Source: Planctomycetota bacterium (GTDB lineage Bacteria > Planctomycetota > Planctomycetia > Gemmatales > Gemmataceae). From it: a stretch of DNA of 12,660 nt. Within the stretch, counting starts at the first letter, position 1. Each line of letters opens with the position of its first letter. The position numbers and the translations under genes are program-made. The stretch lies in NCBI GenBank assembly GCA_021809185.1, contig JAKBAI010000168.1:1-12660 (forward strand). Reading direction: 5' to 3'. This document shows positions 1 to 12,660 of the stretch, in pieces. The notes under the pieces were generated by a model. That model saw nothing but the letters and a program-made list of their open reading frames with translations, was not told the origin of the DNA and did not search any database.

Positions 1-652
1 CCTCTTTATCGACATCTGCTGCGTTATAGCCTGCGCGCCTCATGATAATTTTTGCTAGATCATTGGGGCGATATGATGGCAATGGATGATTCGGATTTCC
101 TGAAGGCATGTGAGTCTGTTTAGCGATTTTAGCAGCTTGTGCTTGGTTGAATGCCTCCATACCGACACCATCCCGGTAATCTTTGGCGTTGATTCCGCCC
201 GGATTCTGAACGTAGCTATTCGATAACTTTCTTGAAGTGCGAACATCCTCTTCAATTGCCATATTGGCTAGTTCCAGGCTCAAAATTGCTGCTAGTTCGC
301 TATCATTATTACACTTATTGACAAGAGATTCTGTGATAACAACCTGATCACTCAACTGGTGGAATACAGAATCGAGATTGGCATTTTGGCCACGGTATAT
401 ATTGCCATTCGCTTCGCGCGCCAATCCGATGGTCACAAATTGCGTATATTGGAGATTGAGATCCGGATTTTTGGCTATTAAACTTCTCCCAACCGAATCA
501 ACTCGGCTCGATACTTCCGTATTTGCTTTTGGAAATCGGCTAAGATCGATCACCGGTTCATTGCGCAAGCCACGATACTGCGATCGATCATTCGTACAGC
601 TCGCTAGGGATATTGCCATCAACCCTACCAAGTAAATCCAACTCGTTTTCAT
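1..652 (-). CDS. Lipoprotein, M48-peptidase-like with degenerate HExxH; 5' end complete, 3' end runs off the window (>=217 aa)
   Basis: A manual reverse-complement translation from the ATG at 652 to position 2 is open with no stop (frame 652 mod 3 = 1), and continues off the window edge. The ORF track omits it for that reason. The N-terminus MKTSWIYLVGLMAISLASC is a signal peptide with lipobox L-A-S-C. A GGAG sits 7 nt upstream of the ATG. An internal ...NKCNNDSELAAILSLELANMAIEE... aligns to the M48 motif (S/D)ELAAVLAHE(I/L)GH, with both His replaced (L and N). The downstream IIMRRAGYNAADV resembles the M48 'LARAGYDP' region. Confidence 0.6.
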   Translation of the reverse strand, partial: MKTSWIYLVGLMAISLASCTNDRSQYRGLRNEPVIDLSRFPKANTEVSSRVDSVGRSLIAKNPDLNLQYTQFVTIGLAREANGNIYRGQNANLDSVFHQLSDQVVITESLVNKCNNDSELAAILSLELANMAIEEDVRTSRKLSNSYVQNPGGINAKDYRDGVGMEAFNQAQAAKIAKQTHMPSGNPNHPLPSYRPNDLAKIIMRRAGYNAADVDKE

Positions 653-1206
653 AGGAATTCTCCACATCTATTTCTGAAGCTCGGCATGATCCTATCATTC
701 TTCTTGAACAAATCGGAAATCCATCGATTTCACCATCTTGAATACTGATCCATTCCACTTTTTGGAAATATATTCCAGGTACCTTACTGTCAAGAGCAGA
801 TAAGATTGGCAAAATTGTGGTATTTCTTCCTATGAAAATAAGATAGGGAATCTTAATTCTTAAGGGGACCGATTGAATCTCTCGCCAAAAATATTACAAT
901 AACCTATACAATATAGATAAAATGAATGAAATTAGATTGTTGAACCTATTTAGCGATCTATCGTGAATAGATAGTTCAAAAGATTAAGATTGTTAGCGAA
1001 TCAGCAAACTACCAGTTAATCAGAAAATGTAAAATCGAAACTTCACAAGAAGTTCCGTAAATATTCTTCAAACTGATTGATTAATGATGCCCAGAGTAGA
1101 CCACCTGCATCAAGAAAGGTACTTCTACTTTGAATCCTACTTTTTTTCCTAAAAGTGATTGAATTCTCAGAATTTGAACTTCCAATTAAAAGGAGTATAT
1201 TTGGGA

Positions 1207-1239
1207 AGTTGAATAAGAAAGTTGAATAAGAAAGTTGAG
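1207..1239 (+). repeat. 13-bp tandem direct repeat AGTTGAATAAGAA x2 plus partial third copy (AGTTGAG), ending 12 bp upstream of the start codon at 1252
   Basis: Read directly: agttgaataagaa (1207-1219), agttgaataagaa (1220-1232), agttgag (1233-1239). It lies in an AT-rich 600-bp divergent intergenic region. Confidence 0.85.
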
Positions 1240-1251
1240 TTAAAAATTTAA

Positions 1252-2178
1252 ATGATGAAAGATTCCGCAATTCCCAGCACTTCAGTTATCTCTCAAAATA
1301 TTATTCAGGATTCAACGAGTACTGAAGAACTTCAAGACCAATTGGCCTCCTTATTAAGTGAACAGCAAGAAAGTGAACAAGAACTAGAATTAGAAGATCG
1401 TAAAACTGGCAAACTTAAAGAAAGCTGGCAACAAATACGCAACATTCCTTGCCACCGTTGTCAAAAATTGTATTGTGGTCATGAAGCCCTTTTAAGTATC
1501 GCTCTAGGGTTCAAGAATACCCCCTATTGCTTAATTTGTCTGGCCAGTGGGCTAAATCGTTCGGTAAGCGAATTGATGGAACAATTAAGTTTATATATCC
1601 AGAGACACACCTGTTTTCGCACCGTCTGGATGATCGCCTCGAGAGAAGAACAGATCGAGGATATGCTTATCCCCATTTGTATTCAATCGCTTCTGGCCAC
1701 TGAAAAGAGTAAGATAGTCATGAATACTAGCAATAATAGCTTACGACAGTCTAACGACCAATCTGATTCCCGTCGATATCCGAGCACAAATCAATCAGAG
1801 TCAAATTCGCAATTTTGCCAAAGTCAGCAATCTCAAAGTGAACAATCTCAAAGTCAGCAATCGGAGAATTTGACACAATCTTGTTCAAGTAACCGTGGCA
1901 ATCCGATGAAAACTACTCCAGACTCAGATTTAAAAGAGCCAGCAGATCAGCTTACAACTGCCATCCAATCGGAAGTTTTTGATGCAGGAAACATGGGTTG
2001 TGGAAATCTCGTTTTGGCATTACGATTAAAATTAAAATCGTTACCCCCCGGAACTCTTTTAACGGTAATCGCTCAAGACCCCGCTGCGCCACAAGATCTG
2101 CCTGCATGGTGCCGTATGACTGGTCACCGTTTACTCGAAACTCAGCACCCTAATTATCTTATTCAACGAAAGGATTAA
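1252..2178 (+). CDS. Two-domain protein: N-terminal Cys/His-rich domain (C-x2-C-x5-C-x-H ... C-x2-C), Q/S/N-rich linker, C-terminal TusA-like sulfur-carrier domain with atypical C-G-N active-site motif
   Basis: 308-aa ORF. The C-terminal ...FDAGNMGCGNLVLALRLKLKSLPPGTLLTVIAQDPAAPQDLPAWCRMTGHRLLETQHPNYLIQRKD aligns to E. coli TusA (LRCPEPVMMVRKTV...[26 protein letters not shown]...YLIRKG), with the active Cys conserved but CPxP replaced by CGN. The N-terminal CHRCQKLYCGHE...YCLICL cluster is probably a metal-binding module. The gene ends 6 bp before the next gene, suggesting an operon. Confidence 0.8.
   Translation: MMKDSAIPSTSVISQNIIQDSTSTEELQDQLASLLSEQQESEQELELEDRKTGKLKESWQQIRNIPCHRCQKLYCGHEALLSIALGFKNTPYCLICLASGLNRSVSELMEQLSLYIQRHTCFRTVWMIASREEQIEDMLIPICIQSLLATEKSKIVMNTSNNSLRQSNDQSDSRRYPSTNQSESNSQFCQSQQSQSEQSQSQQSENLTQSCSSNRGNPMKTTPDSDLKEPADQLTTAIQSEVFDAGNMGCGNLVLALRLKLKSLPPGTLLTVIAQDPAAPQDLPAWCRMTGHRLLETQHPNYLIQRKD
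1819..1863 (+). repeat. In-frame 15-bp tandem repeat x3 (CAAAGTCAGCAATCT / CAAAGTGAACAATCT / CAAAGTCAGCAATCG) encoding QSQQS-QSEQS-QSQQS within the linker of the 1252..2178 CDS
   Basis: Read directly from the sequence. The first and third units differ by 1 nt. The unit length is a multiple of 3, so copy-number change would keep the frame. Confidence 0.85.
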
Positions 2179-2184
2179 CTTGTT

Positions 2185-2547
2185 ATGTCGAATAAATTTT
2201 GTTTGGTTTTAACTCATGCCAAGGACAATGTCGATCGAGCCACAGTCGCCTTTGTGGTTGCCAATGCAGCATTAGCATCGGACAAAGAGACCGTAGTCTT
2301 TTTAACCGTGGAGGGGGTCCATCTAAGCCAAGTTGGGTACGCGAACGATCTTCACGAACCCGGTTTTGCACCCCTCAAAGATTTAATTGCGCAGTTCACC
2401 GGCTCTGGCGGGCAGATCTGGGTCTGTTCCCCATGCTTCAAAAAACGCAAGTTAGAAGAAAATAAACTGGTTCAGGGGGCCATTCTAGTTGGCGGTGCCA
2501 AACTGGTAGAATTTCTATCGGATGGTGCCCCCTGTGTCTCCTATTGA
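2185..2547 (+). CDS. DsrE/DsrF-like (YchN-fold) sulfur-relay family protein
   Basis: 120 aa. The pattern is typical of the family. The N-terminus KFCLVLTHAKDN...ATVAFVVANAALASDKETVVFLTVEGVHL resembles the DsrE start (LIIVTSGPYG...AL..AL..GHEV.VFF..DGV). There is a conserved Cys in ...QIWVCSPC... (DsrE 'VCS' active-site region). The C-terminus LVQGAILVGGAKLVEFLSDGAPCVSY matches the family end. The gene starts 6 bp after the previous stop. Confidence 0.8.
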   Translation: MSNKFCLVLTHAKDNVDRATVAFVVANAALASDKETVVFLTVEGVHLSQVGYANDLHEPGFAPLKDLIAQFTGSGGQIWVCSPCFKKRKLEENKLVQGAILVGGAKLVEFLSDGAPCVSY

Positions 2548-2763
2548 CATTTAAACTCGAACGAGGATCGGCAAATTCAAACCGATTTTGGTTATTGTGT
2601 TGTTTATTCTCGTTTTTTCCTCGTCTTATTCTCCGTGCAAATGGAATGAGACGATCAAAATTCGTTCCTTATTCTTTCAGCTTATTCAACAAGTGGATTC
2701 TCTGCAAAGGTCGATTCTTTGTTTTGATTAGTCAGGAAAAATCCGAATTAGAAGGGTAATATC

Positions 2764-4434
2764 ATGAACGATTCAACCCATCCTCCAGAGACAGCAAAAA
2801 CTGAATTACCTGCAAAGGAGAATCAGCAATCTTCAGCTCTTCCATGGCAAGCGGACAGTGTTTTTCATGGTGGGGATATGGACTGCGGCAACGGATTGCT
2901 GTTAATGATTCGTAAACATCTCGATACATTGAGCGCAGGTCAGTTTTTAGAAATAACTTCAACGGAATCATCGGTCGAAGTCGATCTACCTGCCTGGTGT
3001 CAACTAACGAACAACGAGTTAATTGCGAAAAGGATATTACAAACTGCCGAAGCAACACCAAAAACAACCTGTTATCTCATTCGCAAAGGGGAGAAAGCAC
3101 GAAAGTTGACCTCATCTCCACCTAAATCTGAAATCTCAAGCGGTATATCTAGTGGAACATCCACTGGAACATTCACTACAGAAGAGTTAATCTCCCGTAA
3201 CGAAGAATCTCGAGAGACATACTCTGAAAAATCATCTAAAAGAAGTAGTTCAGGAAAAATCGTTAGGTCAACAGAATATCCTTGGTCAGAGTTACCTCTT
3301 CTACCCGTGATGGGGATCGGTTCTTGGCCGAGACCCCCTTGGCTCCTCACAGCTTTAGAAGAATATGTTTCCAATCGCATGCCCGATCCGGTCTTCCAAG
3401 CTTTGGCCAATCACGCTGTCCAAGAAGCGGTGCGAATGCAAACCGATGCAGGGGTTGACATCATTACCGATGGGGAACAGCGCCGGGATAGCTATGCAAG
3501 TTTTGTCGGCTTACGACTGCAGGGTTGCCAGCTAATTCCATTAGCGGATCTAGCCATTTATTCTCAACACCCAAACGAATTTACGCAAAGCCTGAAGGCA
3601 CTAGATGTTCCTCGAGATCAGCGGCACCCTGCGGTTATTCATCAACTTCAGCGAACTCGCTCGTTAGCTGTCGATGAATATCGCTTTGCTCGCCAACAAA
3701 CCGATCTACCTATTAAAATAGCACTGCCTGGCCCCTATCTTTTACAACGTACTCTCTGGCTCGATTGTATCCCGAATCAGATCTACCAAAACCGAGAGAC
3801 TCTTGCGGATGATCTTGTCAAAATTTTACGAGAAGAGATTGCCGATTTACTCGCGGCGGGGGTTGCCCTTATCCAATTCGATGAACCGGTCTTGACCGAG
3901 GTCGTCTATGGGAAAAAATCAGCGGATCGTTCTTTTATGTGCGGTGCTCTTGCCGAGGCCAGTTCCCCTGCCGAAGAATTGGCTAGAGCAGAAAATTTAT
4001 TGCTCCGAGTGATTGAAGGCTTCCCTCCCCAGCGCCTTGGCTTGCATATCTGCCGCGGTAACTGGTCGCGCGATGAATCGGTAGCCTTGACTGGAAATTA
4101 CCAACCCCTTTTACCACTTTTAACGAAACTCCCTTTTGGCACTCTCTTTTTAGAACTTTGTACACCGAGAGCAGGCGAAATGGCGATTCTAAGCGATCTC
4201 CCTAGCTACCAAAAAATTGGTATCGGTATCGTCAATCCGAAACAGATACGGGTTGAAACCGTTGATGAAATCAAACAAAAAATCGATCGAGCAATCGCCA
4301 CATTTGGCATCGATCGCATTCTGCTCACTCCGGATTGTGGCTTTGCCACTTTTGCCTTGCATCCCCTCTCAAGTAGCCAAATCGCTCAACAGAAACTCGC
4401 CAACATAGTCCGAGCTGCAACACAATACCGCTGA
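2764..4434 (+). CDS. Fusion protein: N-terminal TusA-like domain (C-G-N motif), S/T-rich linker, C-terminal cobalamin-independent methionine synthase (MetE) catalytic-domain-like Zn-dependent thiol methyltransferase domain
   Basis: 556 aa. Residues ~35-110, GGDMDCGNGLLLMIRKHL...VEVDLPAWCQLTNNELIAKRI...TTCYLIRKG, align to TusA including the C-terminal YLIRKG. A low-complexity S/T linker spans ~3106-3300. From ~3301 the sequence shows MetE C-terminal-domain hallmarks. MGIGSWPRP matches the TIGSFPRT motif. DIITDGEQRRDSYASFVG matches DVLVHGEFERNDMVEYFG. GLHICRGN matches the H-x-C zinc ligands (E. coli His641/Cys643). LLTPDCGFAT matches VNPDCGLKTR (Cys726). Confidence 0.85.
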   Translation: MNDSTHPPETAKTELPAKENQQSSALPWQADSVFHGGDMDCGNGLLLMIRKHLDTLSAGQFLEITSTESSVEVDLPAWCQLTNNELIAKRILQTAEATPKTTCYLIRKGEKARKLTSSPPKSEISSGISSGTSTGTFTTEELISRNEESRETYSEKSSKRSSSGKIVRSTEYPWSELPLLPVMGIGSWPRPPWLLTALEEYVSNRMPDPVFQALANHAVQEAVRMQTDAGVDIITDGEQRRDSYASFVGLRLQGCQLIPLADLAIYSQHPNEFTQSLKALDVPRDQRHPAVIHQLQRTRSLAVDEYRFARQQTDLPIKIALPGPYLLQRTLWLDCIPNQIYQNRETLADDLVKILREEIADLLAAGVALIQFDEPVLTEVVYGKKSADRSFMCGALAEASSPAEELARAENLLLRVIEGFPPQRLGLHICRGNWSRDESVALTGNYQPLLPLLTKLPFGTLFLELCTPRAGEMAILSDLPSYQKIGIGIVNPKQIRVETVDEIKQKIDRAIATFGIDRILLTPDCGFATFALHPLSSSQIAQQKLANIVRAATQYR

Positions 4435-4577
4435 CCGCCGTTACGATGTATTCTTAAAAGTGAAATTCAAGCGTCAGAAAAAAATGTCATTTACAAGCTC
4501 TTCGCCAAAAGATCCGACCTTCCGAAAAGTGATAGATAATCGATTTTTGAGCTTGACAAATCAATTCAACCTCGCTA

Positions 4578-5417
4578 ATGACAATCATTTCAAGCATAGA
4601 AAGCGGGAGAGATGAATTGCAACGGTATCAGGTAACTTTACCTATTTTTTACGGCCCGCTCGATCTGTTATTATTCCTAGTCAAGCGGAACGAAATTAAC
4701 CTTCTCGATATTTCCATCGCGCAAATTACAGATCAATTTTTGCAATATCTCGCCGTTATCGAATTCATCGATGTCGATAGTGCTGGGGAATTTCTCATTG
4801 TTGCTGCCACGTTGCTGGAAATGAAAAGCCGATTATTGTTGCCGGTTAGCATCGATGAATCTGAGGAAGAAACCGGGGAAGACCCCCGCCGAGAGCTGAT
4901 TCGCCAATTGATGGAGTATCGCAAATTCAAAGATGCTTCCGGAAAAATCGATCAGCTTGTGCAGGAACAGGAAAAATATCTTACTCGAAAACCGCTCGGC
5001 TCAAACCAACTATCCGGGGAGTCGACCGAATTGAAATCGGTTGAAATCTGGGATCTGGTCGCTGCTTTTGGTCGATTAGTTCGCCAAGTCAAGATTGCTC
5101 AACCCCAAACAACGATTATCGATGAAACCCCGCAAGTGGTTTATGAAAATCTGATTATCGACAAGCTGCACATCGAACATCGGTTCCCTTTTGAAAGTCT
5201 ATTTATTCCCCCTTTCCAGAAAACCAAAATGATTGGGCTTTTCCTAGCTTTACTGGAACTGATTAAACGAAGATTCGTCCATTTGGAACAACAGGAACCT
5301 TTCGGGACCATCTGGATCGAGCTGGCCCCCTCTGCCGAAGAATCGTCACCAATGGCCCATGAAAATGCGAACGAAATTGCCACAGATTCTCCCATCAACT
5401 ATGAAGATTCCATGTAA
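4578..5417 (+). CDS. scpA: Segregation and condensation protein A (ScpA, kleisin of the SMC-ScpAB complex)
   Basis: 279 aa. ...RYQVTLPIFYGPLDLLLFLVKRNEINLLDISIAQITDQFLQY... matches the ScpA N-terminal signature (B. subtilis [22 protein letters not shown]...). The C-terminal ...LFLALLELIKRRFVHLEQQEPFGTIWIEL is the ScpA winged-helix end. An alternative start is the in-frame TTG at 4617, which is preceded by GGGAGA with a 6-nt spacer and would give M-QRYQV. Confidence 0.85.
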   Translation: MTIISSIESGRDELQRYQVTLPIFYGPLDLLLFLVKRNEINLLDISIAQITDQFLQYLAVIEFIDVDSAGEFLIVAATLLEMKSRLLLPVSIDESEEETGEDPRRELIRQLMEYRKFKDASGKIDQLVQEQEKYLTRKPLGSNQLSGESTELKSVEIWDLVAAFGRLVRQVKIAQPQTTIIDETPQVVYENLIIDKLHIEHRFPFESLFIPPFQKTKMIGLFLALLELIKRRFVHLEQQEPFGTIWIELAPSAEESSPMAHENANEIATDSPINYEDSM

Positions 5418-5530
5418 ATGATGTTGTTATAAACAATAGCTTATTTTCCAAATTTCCTCTGACAGAATCAGCAAAAAAATTCAATCAATGATCATCATTT
5501 GATCAAATGAAGTATTTCTAGAGACTAAAA

Positions 5531-5580
5531 TCTATCCCTCTCTCTACTCTTAATTTCCTATCTTTCCTCTTTTCTCTACC
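5531..5580 (+). other. Polypyrimidine (CT-rich) tract in the scpA–ATPase intergenic region
   Basis: tctatccctctctctactcttaatttcctatctttcctcttttctctacc is almost entirely pyrimidines on the plus strand. Confidence 0.6.
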
Positions 5581-5591
5581 GATCTGATTTC

Positions 5592-5597
5592 TATAAT
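5592..5597 (+). promoter_or_regulatory. Candidate -10 hexamer TATAAT 38 bp upstream of the ATPase start codon; no convincing -35 element
   Basis: Exact TATAAT at 5592-5597, downstream of the CT-rich tract. The sequence 17 bp upstream (cttttc) matches TTGACA poorly. Confidence 0.25.
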
Positions 5598-5635
5598 AGG
5601 CAATCGATAGATAAACCTAAATACGATCAATCGTT

Positions 5636-8600
5636 ATGCACCGAGAAATATCTCACACCGATTTACTAGGACCACGTAAAAGCAACACCTCTTTATACGT
5701 GTTTTCATTATTTGTTGGATTTTTACTCGCTCGTGATCTACTCCCCAAATTGCAAGAAGGGTTTCGCTATTTCGGGATCGAAACGGGTCAAAGTACGCGA
5801 TTCCTGTTTGATTATCGATATGCTCTCCTGGCCGCTATCGTTGGTGGAGCACGAGTATTATTTTACTCACTGGAAAAATTGTTGGAAGGCAAGCTCGTCG
5901 CCGATCTAGCGATAGCGATTGCTTGTCTAGCCGCTATTGCCATGAAAGAGCCGCTGGTAGCTAGCGAAGTTGTTTTTATTGGCTTATTGGGCGAATGCCT
6001 GGAAGCTTACACCATGCAGCGGGGCCAGAGTGGAATTGCTCAATTAATTGAACTATTTCCACTCCGGACATGGGTTTTACGCAACGGTAGCGAAGTTCGC
6101 ATCTTGACTACCGAGCTTGTGCGCGGGGATGAAGTGGTTGTCAAACCGGGTGGAAAAATCCCGGTGGATGGCACGATTATGAGCGGTTCGAGCTGCATCG
6201 ATTTTAGCGCTTTGACAGGAGAGAGTATTCCCCAAGATAAATCGGTAGGGGATAAAGTATTTGCCGGTGGAATCAACCAGCAAGGCCAAATAACAATTCG
6301 AGCGGAAGCTGTTTACCAACAGACGGTTGCTGGCAAAGTAATCGATTATACCGTACAAGCCTTACAAGATAAAACGAAACAGGAACGAATTGTAGATCGC
6401 TATGCCCGCTATTTCTTGCCGGTGGTGCTTCTCATTGCTCTATTAACTCTGCTGGGCAATCTTTTCGCCTATATGGGACCGTTTCGACCAGCTAGCCAAC
6501 GGCTGAACTTCGTCCCTGCTCTGTATCTGGGTCTCTACCCGACGCTATCGGTATTAGTGGTCGCGTGCCCCTGTGCGCTGATTTTGGCAACCCCTGCTGC
6601 AATGGTTGCTGCCTTGGGTCGACTTGCTGGAACAGGTATCCTCATAAAAGGAGTATCGGTTCTGGAGAAACTCACGCAAGTGAACGCGATCGCTTTTGAT
6701 AAAACAGGTACACTCACCGAAGGGAAATTGGCTCTCTCATCTATTTTACCCGAACCGGGCTATCAAGAACTCGCTATCTTGCAAATCATGAGTAGTATCG
6801 AACAGAGCAGCGACCATCCTATTGCGCAATGCTTCCAGCGTGAACGGGAATCTCGCCAGCTACCCCTGCTGGCTATGTCGAATTATCAAACCGTTCCTGG
6901 CCAAGGAATGAGTGCCGAGTATAATCAGGAGTTCTACTGGGCAGGTAGCTCACGCTGGCTTGCCACGCAAGGCATTATTTTAAGTGAAGAACAAACGCAA
7001 ACTCTGAACCGATTGCATCAGCAAAGCGAAACCGTTATCTTTCTAGGTAAAAACAAAGATGTGATCGGCTTTTTTGGCGTTAAAGATACCATTCGCGCGG
7101 ATGCCGAACATACACTTATCGAATTGAGAAAATCGGGAATTGAAAAAATCCTTATTCTGAGTGGCGATCAACAAAATATCGTTGAACATGTTGCGGAAAC
7201 CCTTGCCATCAAAGAGTATTATGGAAATTGTCTTCCCCTCGAAAAGGCCGAGAAAATAAAAGAATTTAGCACGGCAGCGATCGTAAACCCCGCTTTGGCT
7301 AGCAACGATACTACTCATCGTTCAAATCCAAGCGACGATTCTATCGCCTTTTCTATCGGCTATCCTATCAGCTCAACAACGAAGGGGAGCACACCCCCCT
7401 CCTATCGGTTTGCCTTTGTTGGAGATGGTATCAACGACGCTCCAGCTCTGGTTGCTGCCGAAGTTGGTATTGCCGTGGGAAGTGGTAGCGACCTCGCGCG
7501 GCATGCCGGCTCTATTGTTTTATTAGGGTCTCCTTTATCTTCGTTACCGTTGTTGTTTCGCTTGTCCCGCGAAACAATGCGAATCATCCAGCAAAATCTG
7601 ATCTTGTTTGCCTTTGGCGCGAACATCCTTGGAATTATTATCACGGCCTGGCTTTGGCCGCTCTTATCCCCTTCCTCCTTATGGTATGAACAGTCCCCCC
7701 TTGCTGCGGCCATATATCATCAATTTGGGTCGTTAGCAGTCTTATTGAATTCGATGCGGCTCCTATTTTTTGAAAACACCAAAGTAGCGAAAAGCTGGCA
7801 AAAGATTCAACAGCTATTCGAATCTCTACAAAAAAGCACCTTCCTTCCGTTTGATCTCGATCAGTTTTTACACACCCTTTTTGATTGGCGCAAACCGATC
7901 ATGACCGCCTGCGCGGGTTTAGCACTATTAGCATACTGCGGCACGGGCATTGTTATCATCCAAGCTAATGAAATTGGCATTGTGCAAACATTAGGACGTT
8001 GGTCGCGTGATCTTCCCCCAGGATGGCATTGGTGCTGGCCGATAGGGATCGATCAAATTACCAAACTAAAACCAGAGACCGAACAGATTGTCGAAATCGG
8101 GTTTCGCACTTTACCTAGTTCGAATCTAGACCAATCCCCTTTGCAGATTGATAGCCGGGTCCGAAATCAGCTAAGGGTGCGTGGACTAATCTGGGCCAGC
8201 GCCCATGGGGACAATATCCAGCGCTTAACCGATGAAGCGATCATGATAACCGGAGATGGCGACCTGATCGAGTTACTAGCCACTTTACGCTATACAATCC
8301 GCGACCCCCACCAATATCTATTCCAAGCCAACGATATACCGCAGATCGTGCAACAGATTACGGAGACGGTTTTCCGTGAACAGCTCGCGGGTCGATCGTT
8401 TCTGGATTTATTGACGACTCAACGGCTGGATCTCCAACGCCGAGCAGAATCGATTACCCAATTTCGCTGTGATACTATAATCCCTGGCGGACTCGGTATC
8501 ACGATTAAGGGTATCAGTATAGGAGACTTGCACCCACCGCAGGAGGTTGTCCCTGCCTATCATGAAGTGGCTCGCGCGATTCAACTAAGAGATCAACAGG

Positions 8601-9076
8601 TTAACAATGCAAAAGCGGACGCCATTCGTAAAGTTCGCTTGGCTCAAGAATCATCTTTACAAATGATCCGTACCGCCGAAGCTAAAAGCCATGAAAAGAT
8701 TGCCCAAGCTCAGGCCGATCGGGATAACTTTCTAGCTTGGCATCTCTATCGGTCCGAATTAACTTCAGAAGAAGAGAATCGGCTCAAAGCGTTAATGGCA
8801 AAATGGCAGCAAGATGGGTTCAACATTCAGGAAATACAAAGCCGACGAATTCAGGAACGATTATTGATGCTCCAGACCAAACAAAATCTCTCCGAATCGC
8901 AATTAATGTGGACTATGCTCACTTCCGTATTAAAAAATCGTGATAAAATTATCATCGATGCCGATAACCTACCGGGGAAAAGACAACTATTTTTGGTTGA
9001 TCCGAATTCGCTTCGCCCGAATCTCCTTTTGCCACCGGATTCCCTCAAACAGGCTATGCCGGAACGTAAAGATTAG
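5636..9076 (+). CDS. Fusion: P1B-type heavy-metal-translocating P-type ATPase (no N-terminal metal-binding domain) fused to a C-terminal HflK-like SPFH/band-7 domain with its own TM anchor and coiled-coil tail
   Basis: Single 1146-aa ORF. ATPase motifs: TGES actuator motif (ALTGESIP), TM6 [10 protein letters not shown] (Cys at 6566-6574), DKTGTLT (6698-), SxHP (SSDHPIAQ) and [10 protein letters not shown] (7421-). The ATPase part ends ~[10 protein letters not shown] (7742-7771). After a ~45-aa linker comes the TM helix [21 protein letters not shown] (7898-). From there the sequence aligns to HflK. [27 protein letters not shown] matches [59 protein letters not shown] matches the LLTADENIVDVDFAVQYRIVDPEKYLF region. 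[21 protein letters not shown] matches PPEEVKAAFDDVIKARED. A coiled-coil tail follows. Confidence 0.85.
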   Translation: [1146 protein letters not shown]

Positions 9077-9157
9077 TTTCTTATCGTTTGATTGTGCTCA
9101 ATAAATATAAACTGATCAATAATCTAGATTACGAAATGACTATCTCGAATAGAATCA

Positions 9158-9175
9158 GGGGGGCTTACGCCCCCC
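9158..9175. terminator. Perfect GC hairpin (GGGGGGC-TTAC-GCCCCCC) between convergent genes; candidate bidirectional intrinsic terminator
   Basis: Read directly: 7-bp perfect stem made only of G and C, with a 4-nt loop, in an otherwise AT-rich 165-bp gap between the + gene ending at 9076 and the - gene ending at 9242. The flanking U-runs are poor, so confidence is moderate. Confidence 0.5.
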
Positions 9176-9241
9176 GCTCGACTTGGTTGAAGGATAACGA
9201 CCCCAGCAAGAGATCTAAATAAGCTTTTGACTCGTGGACAA

Positions 9242-10363
9242 TTACTTTAATTTTTTCTTTGGTGTTGCTTCGTGAGCGTTCAGGTTATTTAGGACTTCTT
9301 TCAATTTAGCCTGAGCTGTGCTATTTTCTGGTAACGGTTTTTCCTGAATCGCTGGTAAAAGTTTCTCCCAGATCGCATTCAGTTGACCTTGCATATTATT
9401 GGTTTTTGCGGTGATGGCGATAACAGCATCTAATTCGGGAAGAACAATACAGAATTGCCCATCCTTTCCATCGCCGCGAAAAGCATGATGACGACAACGC
9501 CAGAATTGATAGCAGTAGCCCTGATCCCAATCGCTATTAGGATTACTTCCATTCGATGTTTGTTTGGTGGTGGCCATGGAGACCCAAGATTCCGGAATGA
9601 GTTGTTTTCCTTGCCATTTCCCTTTTTGGAGATATAGTTGACCAAACTTAGCGATATCTTCGGTACGAATAAATAAGCCATAGCCACCGATACTAATTCC
9701 TTGGGGGCTGGCATCCCAGACCGGATCGTCGATACGCAGAGGGTCGAAAAGTCGTGGTTTCAGATAATCTAAAACAGTATTCCCTGTTGTTTTTTGCACA
9801 ATAGCGGAAAGCATGTAGGTAGCTGGGGTATTGTACATAAAGTGTGTGCCGGGTTTAAAAGGAACGGGGTGAGCGAGGAACGACTTTACCCAAGGAACAT
9901 CTTTCTGAAATCGCACTTCGCTGGTATGACCAGCAGACATGCAGAGCAGATCGCGGACACGCATATTGCGAAGATTGGCCGATGGGTTCTCTGGAGCCAT
10001 ATCGGGAAAGAACTTCAATACTTCATCATCCAGGGAAAATTTCCCTTCATGAATTGCTAACCCAACAGCGGTGGATGTAAAACTTTTGCTCAAAGAGAAC
10101 ATAACGTGCTTCGTTTCGGGGGTTTGTGGTTTCCACCAACCTTCGGCAACCACTTTCCCATGGCGAACGAGCATAAAACTATGCATGGTATTGATTTTCT
10201 TGTCTATCGTTTCGATAAATTCGATTATTCCCTGAGAAGATATTCCCTCCGCTTCTGGAGTGGAACGCGGTAAGGGAAAGGCCTTTTTATCCTCGCTGTA
10301 TAACGAGAATGGAGAGAAAAGACAGATAAAAGCAATTAGATAATTGGAACTTAAAAAACGCAT
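9242..10363 (-). CDS. Secreted beta-lactamase-family serine hydrolase (class C beta-lactamase / esterase-like)
   Basis: 373 aa. There is an N-terminal signal peptide (MRFLSSNYLIAFICLFSPFSLYS). The S-x-x-K active-site motif appears in FSLSKSFTSTAVGLAI, ~25 aa after a Gly/Trp-rich region typical of the family (LVRHGKVVAEGWW). Length and layout are consistent with the AmpC/EstB-like fold. A GAGG lies 9 nt upstream of the ATG. Confidence 0.75.
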   Translation of the reverse strand: MRFLSSNYLIAFICLFSPFSLYSEDKKAFPLPRSTPEAEGISSQGIIEFIETIDKKINTMHSFMLVRHGKVVAEGWWKPQTPETKHVMFSLSKSFTSTAVGLAIHEGKFSLDDEVLKFFPDMAPENPSANLRNMRVRDLLCMSAGHTSEVRFQKDVPWVKSFLAHPVPFKPGTHFMYNTPATYMLSAIVQKTTGNTVLDYLKPRLFDPLRIDDPVWDASPQGISIGGYGLFIRTEDIAKFGQLYLQKGKWQGKQLIPESWVSMATTKQTSNGSNPNSDWDQGYCYQFWRCRHHAFRGDGKDGQFCIVLPELDAVIAITAKTNNMQGQLNAIWEKLLPAIQEKPLPENSTAQAKLKEVLNNLNAHEATPKKKLK

Positions 10364-10389
10364 TTTTTTTTACCTCATTTATCAAGAGT

Positions 10390-10433
10390 GTAATAAGAGA
10401 GTAACAAGCATGTAACAAGCATGTATCAAGGCG
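10390..10433. repeat. 11-bp tandem direct repeat x4 (GTAATAAGAGA / GTAACAAGCAT / GTAACAAGCAT / GTATCAAGGCG), 27-70 bp upstream of the minus-strand start at 10363
   Basis: Read directly. The two central copies are identical and the outer ones are degenerate. Confidence 0.8.
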
Positions 10434-10460
10434 ATCGTTTGCGAAATTCCCCTTTCGGGT

Positions 10461-10533
10461 TCTCTAGACAGTATCTCTAGTCAGTATCTCTAGACAGTAT
10501 CTCTAGACAATATATAGACAGAGTATAGACAAT
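10461..10533. repeat. 13-bp tandem direct repeat TCTCTAGACAGTA x4 (single mismatches) plus ~1.5 degenerate copies (TATAGACAGAGTA TAGACAAT); each unit contains the palindrome TCTAGA
   Basis: Read directly: units at 10461-10473, 10474-10486 (A to T), 10487-10499 and 10500-10512 (G to A), then a degenerate tail to 10533. The array lies between the transglutaminase-like gene stop (10570) and the serine-hydrolase start (10363). Confidence 0.85.
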
Positions 10534-10569
10534 CAACCAAATAACAAATATTCTAATTTAACGGTTCGC

Positions 10570-12087
10570 TTATTTCGAAACAGCTTTCAGTTCTCGCGTC
10601 AAATCGATCATTTTGGGCGGAGCGTTCCCTCCCACATCAATTTCAAACTTATAGGGTAAACGGTTCACCTCGCGCGATACGGTTTTGATTGGTCCATACT
10701 GGATCCCTTTGCCATCCCATCGGGATCTTTTTTGAGGATTGGCAATATTCGATTCTTGATAACGATAGGTTACCACCAGTTTAGAATTATCTGGGAGTTT
10801 ATTGTTGTTACAGCTTACGGTAATCTTATTTTTGCCGGGAATTAGATAGGGCAAAGCGTTTCGATTGTGTTCGACCTGGGCTTTTAATTGGAGATTCTGA
10901 ATATTCCCTTGAAATTCCAGTTTGAAAGAGAGATGATATTTTTGTTTTGCCAGTTTAGAAATATCTTCCCAACGGCAGAGTTGCCACGATTTACCTCGAT
11001 TGGTAGAAACCGCAATAACATCATCTTTGCGATTGGAATCGGTCGATATATTTACAGATACGAAGGGATACGCAGAAGGGAGTTGCAAAATCAAAACCCC
11101 TTTGCCATTATTTTTGTTAGGATCCTGAACCGTTAGGCCATGTTGAGTAACCATGGCATTTTGAAATTCCAGATAATCGAAGGGCTGATCGGGTTGAAAA
11201 TGGACTTGATAAAGAAAGGTGCCATTCGACCAGTTTCGCGGGCCGTAATGTTCCAAACGTGGTCCGAGAACTTTGTCATGGATAAAATCTTTGATTCCAC
11301 AAGAATGTTGTGGAGGTTTTCCAGAAACAGCAAACCCAAAAGGATCCCCTTTCCAGGCTAAGGTCAATGAACTATGGAGGGGTAAATGAACCAATGGTTG
11401 GTAATCTTGGTCACGCCAGGTAACGGAGGCCCAGCCTTTGGCATTTCCTTCAATATGCCGATGTTGACAGCCTTGGATAACATCCTGAGGCGCATCTCCA
11501 CAACATAAATTTTGCCGAGCGGCTCGATTTTCTTTCATAGCATCCAGCACAATCGAAGGATCTTTGGCAATCTCTTCTTGAGAAACAATATGCGTTTTAT
11601 CTTTCGACCAATAATAGCACTTGAGAAAGACATCAAAATAGTGCCAACGATTATCGTATTTCACTTCGATCGTGGTGTGTCCGGGCCAACCCACATAGCG
11701 GCATTCCCAACCCGCGGTTTCAAAAAGTGCTTTGAGGACCGTATGCTGACCTCCGCAAAGCCCCCACCCATACACATTAATTATCTTTAACGGCCCAACC
11801 GATTGCGGAGCCGATTCCACCGGATAAGCCCAATGAAAGATCGTGTTATGAAGATATTCGTAAATCGCAATTGCTTTTTCATCATTGGTTTTCGCCTGCG
11901 CTCGTTGGATTGCTTGTTGAACAATCGTTTCCAGCGATGAAGAATCGATGGTTTGATCGGTTGTTATTTTCACCCCTTTGACATCTGCCCTTAGCTGATG
12001 GCACATAAATAAATCAGAATGGATTATCATCAATAAAGACCATGTCCAAACTGAGAAATATGTTCGTAAACGGTGCATGGTTGTCAT
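10570..12087 (-). CDS. Secreted transglutaminase-like (Cys-His-Asp papain-fold) domain protein with beta-rich C-terminal region
   Basis: 505 aa. The core GLCGGQHTVLKALFETAGWECRYVGWPGHTTIEVKYDNRWHYFD matches the transglutaminase-like pattern G.C...A.L...LR..GIPAR.V.G....HAW.EV.....W..FD (Cys, then His, then Asp). The signal-peptide-like N-terminus is MHRLRTYFSVWTWSLLMIIHS. The more likely start is the second ATG at 12078, which has a GAGG 9 nt upstream. The first ATG at 12087 abuts the GAGG with no spacer. Confidence 0.75.
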   Translation of the reverse strand: MTTMHRLRTYFSVWTWSLLMIIHSDLFMCHQLRADVKGVKITTDQTIDSSSLETIVQQAIQRAQAKTNDEKAIAIYEYLHNTIFHWAYPVESAPQSVGPLKIINVYGWGLCGGQHTVLKALFETAGWECRYVGWPGHTTIEVKYDNRWHYFDVFLKCYYWSKDKTHIVSQEEIAKDPSIVLDAMKENRAARQNLCCGDAPQDVIQGCQHRHIEGNAKGWASVTWRDQDYQPLVHLPLHSSLTLAWKGDPFGFAVSGKPPQHSCGIKDFIHDKVLGPRLEHYGPRNWSNGTFLYQVHFQPDQPFDYLEFQNAMVTQHGLTVQDPNKNNGKGVLILQLPSAYPFVSVNISTDSNRKDDVIAVSTNRGKSWQLCRWEDISKLAKQKYHLSFKLEFQGNIQNLQLKAQVEHNRNALPYLIPGKNKITVSCNNNKLPDNSKLVVTYRYQESNIANPQKRSRWDGKGIQYGPIKTVSREVNRLPYKFEIDVGGNAPPKMIDLTRELKAVSK

Positions 12088-12138
12088 CCTCGATTGAAAA
12101 TCGATGCTCGTTGAAATTCGTTCGTTGGCTTTTTATAT

Positions 12139-12180
12139 AGCTTGCTAATTAAAGCTTGCTAATTAAAGCTTGCTAATTAA
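12139..12180. repeat. 14-bp perfect tandem direct repeat AGCTTGCTAATTAA x3, 52-93 bp upstream of the minus-strand transglutaminase-like start
   Basis: Read directly: three identical units at 12139-12152, 12153-12166 and 12167-12180, followed by a partial agaatga. Confidence 0.9.
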
Positions 12181-12459
12181 AGAATGATAAATGGAGCGGT
12201 TGCTATCATCCCAATCTTATTCTAATGAATTTAAATAAGAGTAATTCGAGCAGTAATCTAGATTTTAGGATAGGAGCTTAGATTAGACAAGCCAATTCAA
12301 TTGGAAAAATCGAATAGATCCCCGTTCATGAATCATCTGAAATTGGTAATCTGATGATCAACCGCAAATAAAAGTTGGGATTTCGATAAAAATCTGTTCC
12401 AACAGAAAAATGAAAATCGAGGAGAAAGTGAGAAAAGAGGGGAAAGAGTAGTTGAATTA

Positions 12460-12660
12460 TTAATGCAAAAAAACAAATGAGGACTCTTTGAGTCCCCATT
12501 TGGCAAGATTATTATCGATTTCGATTGATTGAAGAGAACTATTCACTTCTGGTGGAGGGTAAACCGGGGAGATTGAACCCAGCACCGCCTTTGAGAAGCT
12601 GTTGTCGCGCTTGGGTTTGCTGGCCCAGACCATGAATTTTGATAAATCCTTGCGCAGCAT
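12460..12660 (-). CDS. Probable 3' end of a minus-strand gene extending beyond the window (unknown product)
   Basis: The open frame reaches the window edge, and the M at 12660 may be internal. It ends exactly at a hairpin plus U-run terminator, which supports a real gene end. No recognisable motifs. Confidence 0.3.
   Translation of the reverse strand: MLRKDLSKFMVWASKPKRDNSFSKAVLGSISPVYPPPEVNSSLQSIEIDNNLAKWGLKESSFVFLH
12466..12496 (-). terminator. Intrinsic terminator on the minus strand: stem GGACUC-AAA-GAGUCC followed by a U-run (UCAUUUGUUUUUUU)
   Basis: Plus strand 12481-12495 ggactctttgagtcc is a perfect 6-bp inverted repeat with a 3-nt loop. On the minus strand it is followed immediately by a T-rich run (complement of 12466-12478 aaaaaaacaaatg). 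It overlaps the last codons and stop of the minus ORF at 12460..12660. Confidence 0.55.

Follow-up and report, generated by a model that had tools for sequence, protein, structure and literature searches.

Three genes on the forward strand of a contig from a Planctomycetota bacterium of the Gemmataceae (assembly GCA_021809185.1, contig JAKBAI010000168.1) may well encode a three-protein relay that operates through cysteines, probably as persulfides, and is dedicated to a zinc enzyme of the methionine synthase family, a reading that we regard as evenly balanced. The whole stretch analyzed, positions 1 to 12,660 of the contig, is referred to here as the window. The module comprises a companion carrier with a TusA-like domain (open reading frame 1, ORF1), a DsrE3-like protein (ORF2), and a fusion of another TusA-like domain to a MetE/MesD-like barrel (ORF3). 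The motif Cys-Pro-x-Pro (CPxP) is the literature signature of TusA carriers, and its cis-proline cap is believed to modulate the reactive Cys; here, a broad group uses Cys-Gly. The principal enzyme served by this group belongs to the methionine synthase family and has an intact homocysteine/zinc site. The module thereby bears on a question raised by the MesD/MesX work, namely the source of the second substrate of folate-independent methionine synthases in aerobes, and on the routing of sulfur into homocysteine in bacteria such as Planctomycetota.

All three genes lie on the same strand within positions 1252-4434, and the gap between the end of ORF1 and the start of ORF2 is 6 base pairs (bp). 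The features of the module are as follows (aa, amino acids; nt, nucleotides).

1252..2178, + strand: ORF1, 308 aa; companion carrier with a Cys-rich helical N-domain, a Q/S-rich disordered linker and a C-terminal TusA-like domain
1315..1755, + strand (aa 22-168): helical Cys-rich domain of ORF1, delimited by an alignment of homologues and the AlphaFold model; no Pfam match
1765-1953, + strand (aa 172-234): low-complexity linker of ORF1, Q/S/N-rich
1957..2175, + strand (aa 236-308): TusA-like domain of ORF1; Cys250 in GCGNL, nt 1996-2007; PF01206, 41.2 bits
2185..2547, + strand: ORF2, 120 aa; DsrE3-like; VCSPCF with Cys81-x2-Cys84, nt 2425-2436; PF02635, 56.3 bits
2764..4434, + strand: ORF3, 556 aa; TusA-like domain, disordered linker and single-barrel MetE/MesD-like zinc enzyme
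2851..3093, + strand (aa 30-110): TusA-like domain of ORF3; Cys41 in DCGNG, nt 2881-2895; PF01206, 25.7 bits (cutoff 28.6)
3289..4431, + strand (aa 176-556): MetE/MesD-like catalytic barrel of ORF3; PF01717, 98.6 bits (cutoff 21)

The TusA-like domains carry Cys-Gly in place of CPxP

The CPxP motif is preserved across the TusA family, with a Cys-Pro bond in the cis configuration where helix 1 begins (PMC11073785). The original prediction held that both TusA-like domains of the module had exchanged this motif for Cys-Gly-Asn, and the residues it quoted were recovered in the translations. Residues 249-252 of ORF1 read GCGN within GNMGCGNLVLALR, with Cys250 at positions 1999-2001, and residues 40-44 of ORF3 read DCGNG within MDCGNGLLLMIR, with Cys41 also falling within GGDMDCGNGLLLMIR. 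Both prolines are gone in each domain (CGNL in ORF1, CGNG in ORF3), and the Cys occupies the TusA catalytic position. The elements DLPAWC and YLIRKG/YLIQRK were likewise found as described, whereas only ORF1 has kept a DDPA-like element (QDPAAP), ORF3 reading STESSV.

Cys250 of ORF1 aligns without gaps on Cys19 of E. coli TusA, and Cys41 of ORF3 stands six residues from the strand-1 Asp, an identical spacing. Given the same Asp-Cys spacing and the aligned Cys, this residue is positionally homologous in both domains. A profile alignment placed one additional residue after the Cys of the fused domain, which puts the helix-1 Arg at Cys+9; in E. coli TusA and ORF1 it is at Cys+8. Because of this extra residue, the motifs of ORF1 and ORF3 are in different register. 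The secondary-structure model of the ORF3 N-domain, built on 116 homologues, consists of a strand (32-37), Cys41, a helix (45-54), a strand (61-66), a helix (69-81) and two further strands (85-92 and 101-107), which is the TusA order β-α-β-α-β-β with Cys41 right before helix 1. The two-layer α/β sandwich of the TusA/SirA family is thus the fold of the TusA-like domains. Comparison of the fused-domain profile with a CPxP TusA profile gave 97.7% probability and an E value of 1.7e-12 (hhalign). The C-domain of ORF1 scored above the PF01206 gathering threshold and the N-domain of ORF3 slightly below it, and precomputed PF01206 matches exist on most ORF3 homologues. With fold, alignment and spacing in agreement, the concern that the Cys might not be homologous to the TusA catalytic Cys was dispelled.

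No variation was seen in the Cys and the next Gly across 116 homologues of the fusion or across 36 of ORF1; in the former set, G36, G37, C41, G42 and G44 of ORF3 were all invariant. Among the best 120 ORF3 homologues, the fused motif was GGxLDCG[N/S/G]GLLL, with CGNG in 75, CGSG in 39 and CGGG in 6 sequences. The companion motif in the 36 ORF1 homologues was WDAGxMxCG[D/E]L (27 CGDL, 7 CGEL and 2 CGNL). Companions in 80 genomic loci read mostly CGEL or CGDL, and CGNL was confined to copies of the window's own contig. The residue after Cys-Gly is acidic in companions, as in CPEP of E. coli TusA. The supposed conserved Gly-Asn thus gives way to Cys-Gly as the common feature, followed by D/E in companions and by N/S/G in fused domains. 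Nor did the two domains represent one substitution seen twice, as they fall into a companion and a fused subfamily whose motifs differ in register. Judged by its family-wide conservation, the Cys-Gly motif is not due to chance.

Companion and fused domains form two related subfamilies

When the TusA domain of ORF1 was searched against 1.84 billion representative proteins, 1314 clusters matched at E ≤ 1e-3, of which 264 reached E ≤ 1e-10. About 110 of the best 150 matches read CG[D/E]L, and the CPxP proteins among the matches were multi-repeat proteins whose scores were summed over three to six canonical domains. Five tandem-repeat proteins (P0157, P0160, P0167, P0248 and P0297) are 370-820 aa long and contain three to six CPxP TusA domains, some repeats being without Cys, preceded by a Cys-containing N-terminal domain.

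In a neighbour-joining tree of 76 domains with 100 bootstraps, for which the CPxP sample was narrow (E. coli TusA and the repeats of five proteins), the fused domains formed one clade in 100/100 bootstraps, and the CPxP sample was split from all Cys-Gly domains in 75/100. Mean tree distances were 1.47 between fused and companion domains, 2.68 between fused and CPxP domains, and 2.26 between companion and CPxP domains. On these sequence distances, companion and fused domains are two related subfamilies, nearer to each other than to the sampled CPxP domains. With its narrow CPxP sample, the tree supports a single Cys-Gly clade without amounting to proof. What the alignment and phylogeny delivered was therefore a firm clade of fused domains and a partly supported separation of Cys-Gly from CPxP, but not a "CGN" clade, since only Cys-Gly is common. 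The idea of a distinct TusA subfamily matched to a fused or neighbouring partner gained support from the family-wide non-CPxP motifs, the tree and the conserved gene context. The suggested contrast with TusBCD/DsrEFH needs qualification, because the partner is itself a DsrE-family protein (DsrE3-like, Cys-x2-Cys); the putative relay therefore resembles the TusA-TusD and DsrE3-TusA pairings and is not a substitute for them.

The DsrE3-like partner and the zinc enzyme retain their active-site residues

ORF2 exceeded the PF02635 cutoff of 22.7 bits, and its top match in the PDB was DsrE3A (3mc3), with Cys81 aligned to the active-site Cys of DsrE3A; no NCBIfam model matched ORF2. The motif VCSPCF[K/R], a Cys-x2-Cys arrangement, was nearly invariant in the DsrE-like proteins of 74 loci. 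The DsrE3A signature is Cys-x7-Cys, and DsrE3A is linked to sHdr, lipoamide dehydrogenase or lipoate-binding genes (PMC4175335). ORF2, with Cys-x2-Cys, lacks this signature, and no sHdr, lipoamide dehydrogenase or lipoate-binding genes were found beside the module in the window or the loci.

The nearest solved relative of the ORF3 barrel was MesD of Shewanella (3rpd, E 4.8e-23), with about 25-28% identity between the two proteins. A Foldseek search with the barrel gave 1t7l at 1.9e-22, and 3rpd had a target TM-score of 0.81. MesD, a core methionine synthase that works without folate, requires its partner MesX and oxygen (PMC7857596). With the zinc and homocysteine residues defined according to the same study and transferred through the 3rpd alignment, the zinc ligands H428, C430, E464 and C525 and the homocysteine-binding residues S187, E238 and D373 of ORF3 were all present and were invariant in 116 homologues. 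ORF3 is without the folate-binding N-barrel, and a disordered linker of about 50 residues (aa 112-158) joins its TusA-like domain to the catalytic barrel. The best NCBIfam match of ORF3 was NF003317 (168.6 bits, cutoff 406), and it reached no NCBIfam methionine-synthase equivalog cutoff. Among 116 sequences, the barrel also showed extra conserved Cys residues, namely C335 and C393 without exception and C255 in 90% or more. In the alignment to MesD 3rpd, C255 lies opposite Val, C335 opposite a gap and C393 opposite Cys. Being without a Cys counterpart in MesD, C335 and C255 could join in thiol exchange. A Pfam scan covering the seven ORFs of the window and some sampled locus neighbours found no MesX (DUF1852), nor do the precomputed neighbour annotations list it; for most neighbours in the 80 loci, the only comparison was with queries derived from the window.

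The triad is syntenic across many phyla

To define its distribution, fusion relatives were scanned in one genome per species and the best 80 loci were examined (individual loci are denoted below by L numbers), with neighbour calls in high-GC loci based on crude six-frame ORFs. Fusion relatives occurred in at least 591 species-level genomes, and the best 80 loci came from Planctomycetota, Binatia, Burkholderiales, Alphaproteobacteria, Bdellovibrionales, Rokubacteria, Terriglobia and others. Cultured carriers include Paracoccus versutus, Paracoccus ferrooxidans, Saltatorellus ferox Poly30, Bordetella genomosp. 12 and Paraburkholderia sp. J67, which makes the module directly testable.

Synteny was assessed in the 72 informative loci with at least 900 bp upstream of the fusion. 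A same-strand DsrE-like gene was located upstream of the fusion in 65 of these 72 and directly adjoined it in 52, a companion TusA was present in 58, and both DsrE and companion occurred in 56. Several apparent misses were ORF-calling artefacts. The order TusA-like, DsrE-like, TusA-MetE fusion is thus strongly conserved, in line with the suggestion that the neighbours would be consistently DsrE-like or MetE-like, and a sporadic scatter of the Cys-Gly variants without conserved context is contradicted by this synteny. Two long companions (L025, 417 aa; L055, 504 aa) were considered as radical-SAM fusions (SAM, S-adenosylmethionine) and rejected, as Pfam detected only the TusA domain and the ORF calls were over-extended. 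The module was undescribed in the open-access literature searched, and no curated family model was found.

ORF1 carries an additional Cys-rich domain

The 36 ORF1 homologues share the same architecture. In the AlphaFold model of ORF1, the predicted local distance difference test (pLDDT) score exceeded 90 over aa 22-168 and 240-305, and it stayed under 50 over aa 172-234. The Cys residues of the helical domain are spaced CxxCx4C...CxxC...C, and alignment of the 36 homologues showed C67, C70, C93, C96 and C121 to be conserved (CxxC...CxxC...C); this domain is possibly a metal or Fe-S site. A fold search with it gave no convincing PDB match beyond the TusA domain, and Pfam gave none either. Only some companions of the planctomycete type have the domain, which was seen in about 15 of 80 loci. 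The Q/S/N-rich linker of ORF1 (SQSEQSQSQQSEN...) is far longer than in any homologue, and ORF1 thus exceeds its relatives by about 100 aa.

A similar carrier pair accompanies a radical-SAM enzyme

The representative search also recovered PqqD-radical-SAM-SPASM proteins with a C-terminal TusA-like domain. This second conserved system was located in three independent contigs.

L092:7001-9523: second system with TusA-fused PqqD-radical-SAM-SPASM enzyme, TusA-like domain reading C-V-E-M
L094:5001-7571: second system with TusA-fused PqqD-radical-SAM-SPASM enzyme
L095:5001-8186: second system with TusA-fused PqqD-radical-SAM-SPASM enzyme

In all three contigs, a small TusA gene and a DsrE gene came immediately after the TusA-fused gene; next in order were a DoxD-like gene, a DUF2064/TIGR04282 gene, a GT2 glycosyltransferase, a second radical-SAM-SPASM gene and a GT87-like gene. 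In L092, the contig whose carrier sequences were read, the small TusA carries CGML and the DsrE carries VCSPCF and is close to ORF2. From these sequences, the pair of proline-less TusA and CSPC-type DsrE looks portable, serving at least two unrelated enzymes that each have their own fused TusA-like domain. As the carrier pair accompanies two unrelated enzymes, a delivered covalent cargo is favoured over a MetE-specific accessory role. Related radical-SAM proteins have a SAM-methyltransferase domain where the TusA-like domain sits.

Neighbouring genes vary between lineages

In eight Binatia-type loci, metY, metX and metW are divergently arranged beside the DsrE gene and the fusion, usually with an MTAP-like phosphorylase. 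This metY-metX-metW association is the only recurrent metabolic linkage of the module and points to methionine biosynthesis. Sequence inspection of five Binatia loci (L026, L031, L071, L076 and L084) showed a Fur/Zur-like regulator, together with a COG0523-type GTPase that is putatively a zinc metallochaperone, a few genes 3' of the fusion.

On chromid pFER4 of Paracoccus ferrooxidans, a SufS-family cysteine desulfurase is divergent upstream of the module, and selA (TIGR00474, 565 bits) lies on the same strand 3' of it, with the selA stop overlapping trxB. The P. versutus chromids (H2, H3) are expected to share this arrangement. As general neighbours, selA, trxB and SufS were rejected, being confined to Paracoccus (1 of 85 loci). 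A selenium link through a tRNA-Sec near L012 was also set aside as incidental, the adjoining genes encoding hydrolases, short-chain dehydrogenases/reductases and a B12-radical-SAM protein.

Six Burkholderiales loci (L030, L052, L056, L062, L068 and L075) contain a PhnC/D/E-type ATP-binding cassette (ABC) transporter and an extra 134-aa DsrE-like gene in the operon; the binding protein matched the putative selenate-binding family TIGR04553 weakly (76 bits, cutoff 250). Two inserted genes separate DsrE from the fusion in six loci of alpha- and betaproteobacteria. The first encodes a membrane protein of about 170 aa with CVSCLAP (Cys-x2-Cys) inside a transmembrane helix, the second a secreted protein of about 500 aa with a C-terminal anchor, and neither had a Pfam or NCBIfam match.

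L085:2363-10577: module and neighbours on P. ferrooxidans chromid pFER4
L068:2372-4141: example of the Burkholderiales insertion, PhnCDE-type transporter and DsrE-like gene
L080:2854-4948, L064:2830-4895 and L085:4511-6595, also in L022, L074 and L083: two-gene insertion

A putative persulfide relay and its alternatives

In the proposed mechanism, a Cys-bound group, most likely sulfane sulfur in the form of a persulfide, would pass from the companion TusA to the DsrE-like protein and on to the tethered TusA domain, an order modelled on the precedents of transfer from TusA to TusD and from DsrE3 to TusA. The direction of transfer between DsrE3 and TusA proteins is known (PMC4175335, PMC11094781). 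The tethered domain would act as a swinging arm that offers the group to the zinc/homocysteine site, and the loss of both prolines, and with them of the cis Cys-Pro helix cap, may have re-shaped the Cys loop for dedicated partners. The role would most likely lie in homocysteine/methionine biosynthesis. Either the fusion would be a partner-dependent core methionine synthase, as MesD depends on MesX, or the carrier persulfide would attack an activated homoserine at the zinc site and yield homocysteine without free sulfide. The TusA and DsrE homologies, the invariant Cys residues, the synteny, the intact active site, the SufS neighbour in Paracoccus and the met genes in Binatia together support such a relay. 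If the carrier set is portable and plugs into different enzymes that each have a fused TusA-like docking or carrier domain, its association with the MetE/MesD-like enzyme could represent a fifth family of core methionine synthases, one dependent on partners, or, more radically, a route to homocysteine/methionine that uses a protein persulfide, not free sulfide, and is independent of pyridoxal phosphate (PLP), with another reaction at the radical-SAM enzyme; we consider this extended proposal rather unlikely.

Several observations weigh against the relay. The three-step order is not universal, as the Binatia loci have no companion TusA within 5 kb, and the linkage to methionine genes is limited to this one class, so that in effect it provides a single independent observation or a few. 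No SAM or cobalamin riboswitch was detected upstream of the module in the window and 11 loci (Rfam, gathering threshold); regulation by methionine or B12 through a riboswitch or leader was accordingly discarded, nothing having appeared upstream of the module in these 12 sources. None of the conserved partners is obviously methyl-carrying, which leaves the methyl donor of the synthase version unexplained. The formation of homocysteine would call for a PLP-independent reaction without precedent and would be redundant with the adjoining metY in Binatia.

The same genes could be read differently if the fusion were a folate-independent core methionine synthase whose TusA-like and DsrE-like proteins, instead of bringing in a substrate, serve thiol-disulfide maintenance or regulation by keeping the oxidation-prone zinc/Cys site or homocysteine reduced, or gate the enzyme through a mixed disulfide. 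The intact zinc and homocysteine sites and the position of MesD as nearest solved relative are compatible with this, as are the Cys-x2-Cys of ORF2, which is typical of redox-active dithiols, the Cys-rich and possibly metal- or Fe-S-binding N-domain of ORF1, and trxB 3' of the Paracoccus module; beside metX, metW and metY, such a fusion would supply the missing last step. Yet a covalent carrier on a long flexible linker together with two dedicated carriers seems elaborate for maintenance, the similar carrier pair at an unrelated radical-SAM/SPASM enzyme argues for a delivered group, and the methyl donor would still be unaccounted for. Redox maintenance is in our view a doubtful explanation. An alternative cargo, namely selenium or another thiophilic metalloid carried as a perselenide or As(III)-type adduct, with the MetE-like domain acting on a seleno-amino acid or an (un)methylated selenium species, appears improbable. 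Pairing of TusA-like and DsrE-like proteins with selenium metabolism is an established pattern of comparative genomics (YedF family) and counts in favour of this cargo. The P. ferrooxidans module fits as well, with selA-trxB after it and, before it, a desulfurase of a family that includes selenocysteine lyases, as do the Burkholderiales transporter with its binding protein and, for metalloids, the TIGR04282-family gene beside the radical-SAM variant, which NCBI names arsenosugar-associated. On the other hand, the Paracoccus arrangement is a single case among 85 loci, no further selenium genes surround the tRNA-Sec in L012, the transporter matches fall far under the specific-family cutoff, and a Pfam scan of the window ORFs revealed no selenium or arsenic genes.

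It is also conceivable, though very improbable, that the TusA-like domains have degenerated into non-catalytic remnants, serving only structure or interaction, and that CPxP was lost by decay. The absence of both prolines and the sub-threshold Pfam score of the ORF3 N-domain would fit decay, but the Cys and the adjoining Gly are invariant in both homologue sets, the replacement motifs CG[D/E]L and CG[N/S/G]G are strongly conserved and not of the kind that decay produces, and the DsrE partner retains its active-site Cys. Conservation thus appears to effectively exclude degeneration.

Relation to known sulfur-transfer and methionine synthase systems

In the E. coli TusA-TusBCD (TusD)-TusE relay, which is fed by IscS, the end user is a tRNA thiolase. 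The module differs in having no CPxP, in a single DsrE3-like Cys-x2-Cys protein instead of a TusBCD heterohexamer, and in a MetE-like enzyme with its own fused TusA domain as end user. The DsrE3A/B/C-TusA pairs of Metallosphaera cuprina and Hyphomicrobium denitrificans (PMC4175335, PMC11094781) resemble the module in their adjoining DsrE3 and TusA genes, and ORF2 is nearest to DsrE3A. However, the TusA partners of these sulfur oxidisers have CPxP and their DsrE3A has Cys-x7-Cys, neither of which occurs in the module, and the pairs are dissimilatory, whereas the context of the module is biosynthetic, with no sHdr, lipoate-binding or Dsr genes nearby.

MesD/MesX (PMC7857596; 3RPD) shares with the module a single-barrel MetE homologue that has no folate N-barrel and keeps the zinc and homocysteine residues, and both systems appear to depend on dedicated partner proteins; in the module, these partners are TusA-like and DsrE-like, and a TusA-like domain is fused to the N-terminus of the enzyme. 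The YeeE/YeeD (TsuA/TsuB) thiosulfate uptake system and YedE/YedF also combine a TusA-family protein with a transporter, comparable to the proteobacterial modules with an inserted membrane protein or ABC transporter. YeeD retains CPxP with a cis Cys-Pro bond (PMC11073785), however, the transporters of the proteobacterial modules are unrelated to YeeE, and the module in the window is without a transporter.

Other features of the window and loci

The triad is followed on its 3' side in the window by scpA, a P-type ATPase-SPFH fusion, a beta-lactamase-fold hydrolase and a transglutaminase-like gene. The ATPase fusion (positions 5636-9076) is a 1146-aa protein of unusual architecture, in which a P-type (E1-E2) ATPase is joined to a C-terminal SPFH/Band-7 domain. 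A transglutaminase-like gene was observed within a few genes of the module in three of 85 loci, possibly by coincidence.

Window, 10570-12087, - strand: transglutaminase-like gene
L085:1127-2233: transglutaminase-like gene, Paracoccus
L015:3238-4395: transglutaminase-like gene, planctomycete metagenome-assembled genome (MAG)

In a Planctomycetaceae MAG, 13 Acido-Lenti-1 RNA motifs (RF01687) are arranged in two opposed arrays 3' of the module (L010:10184-11954).

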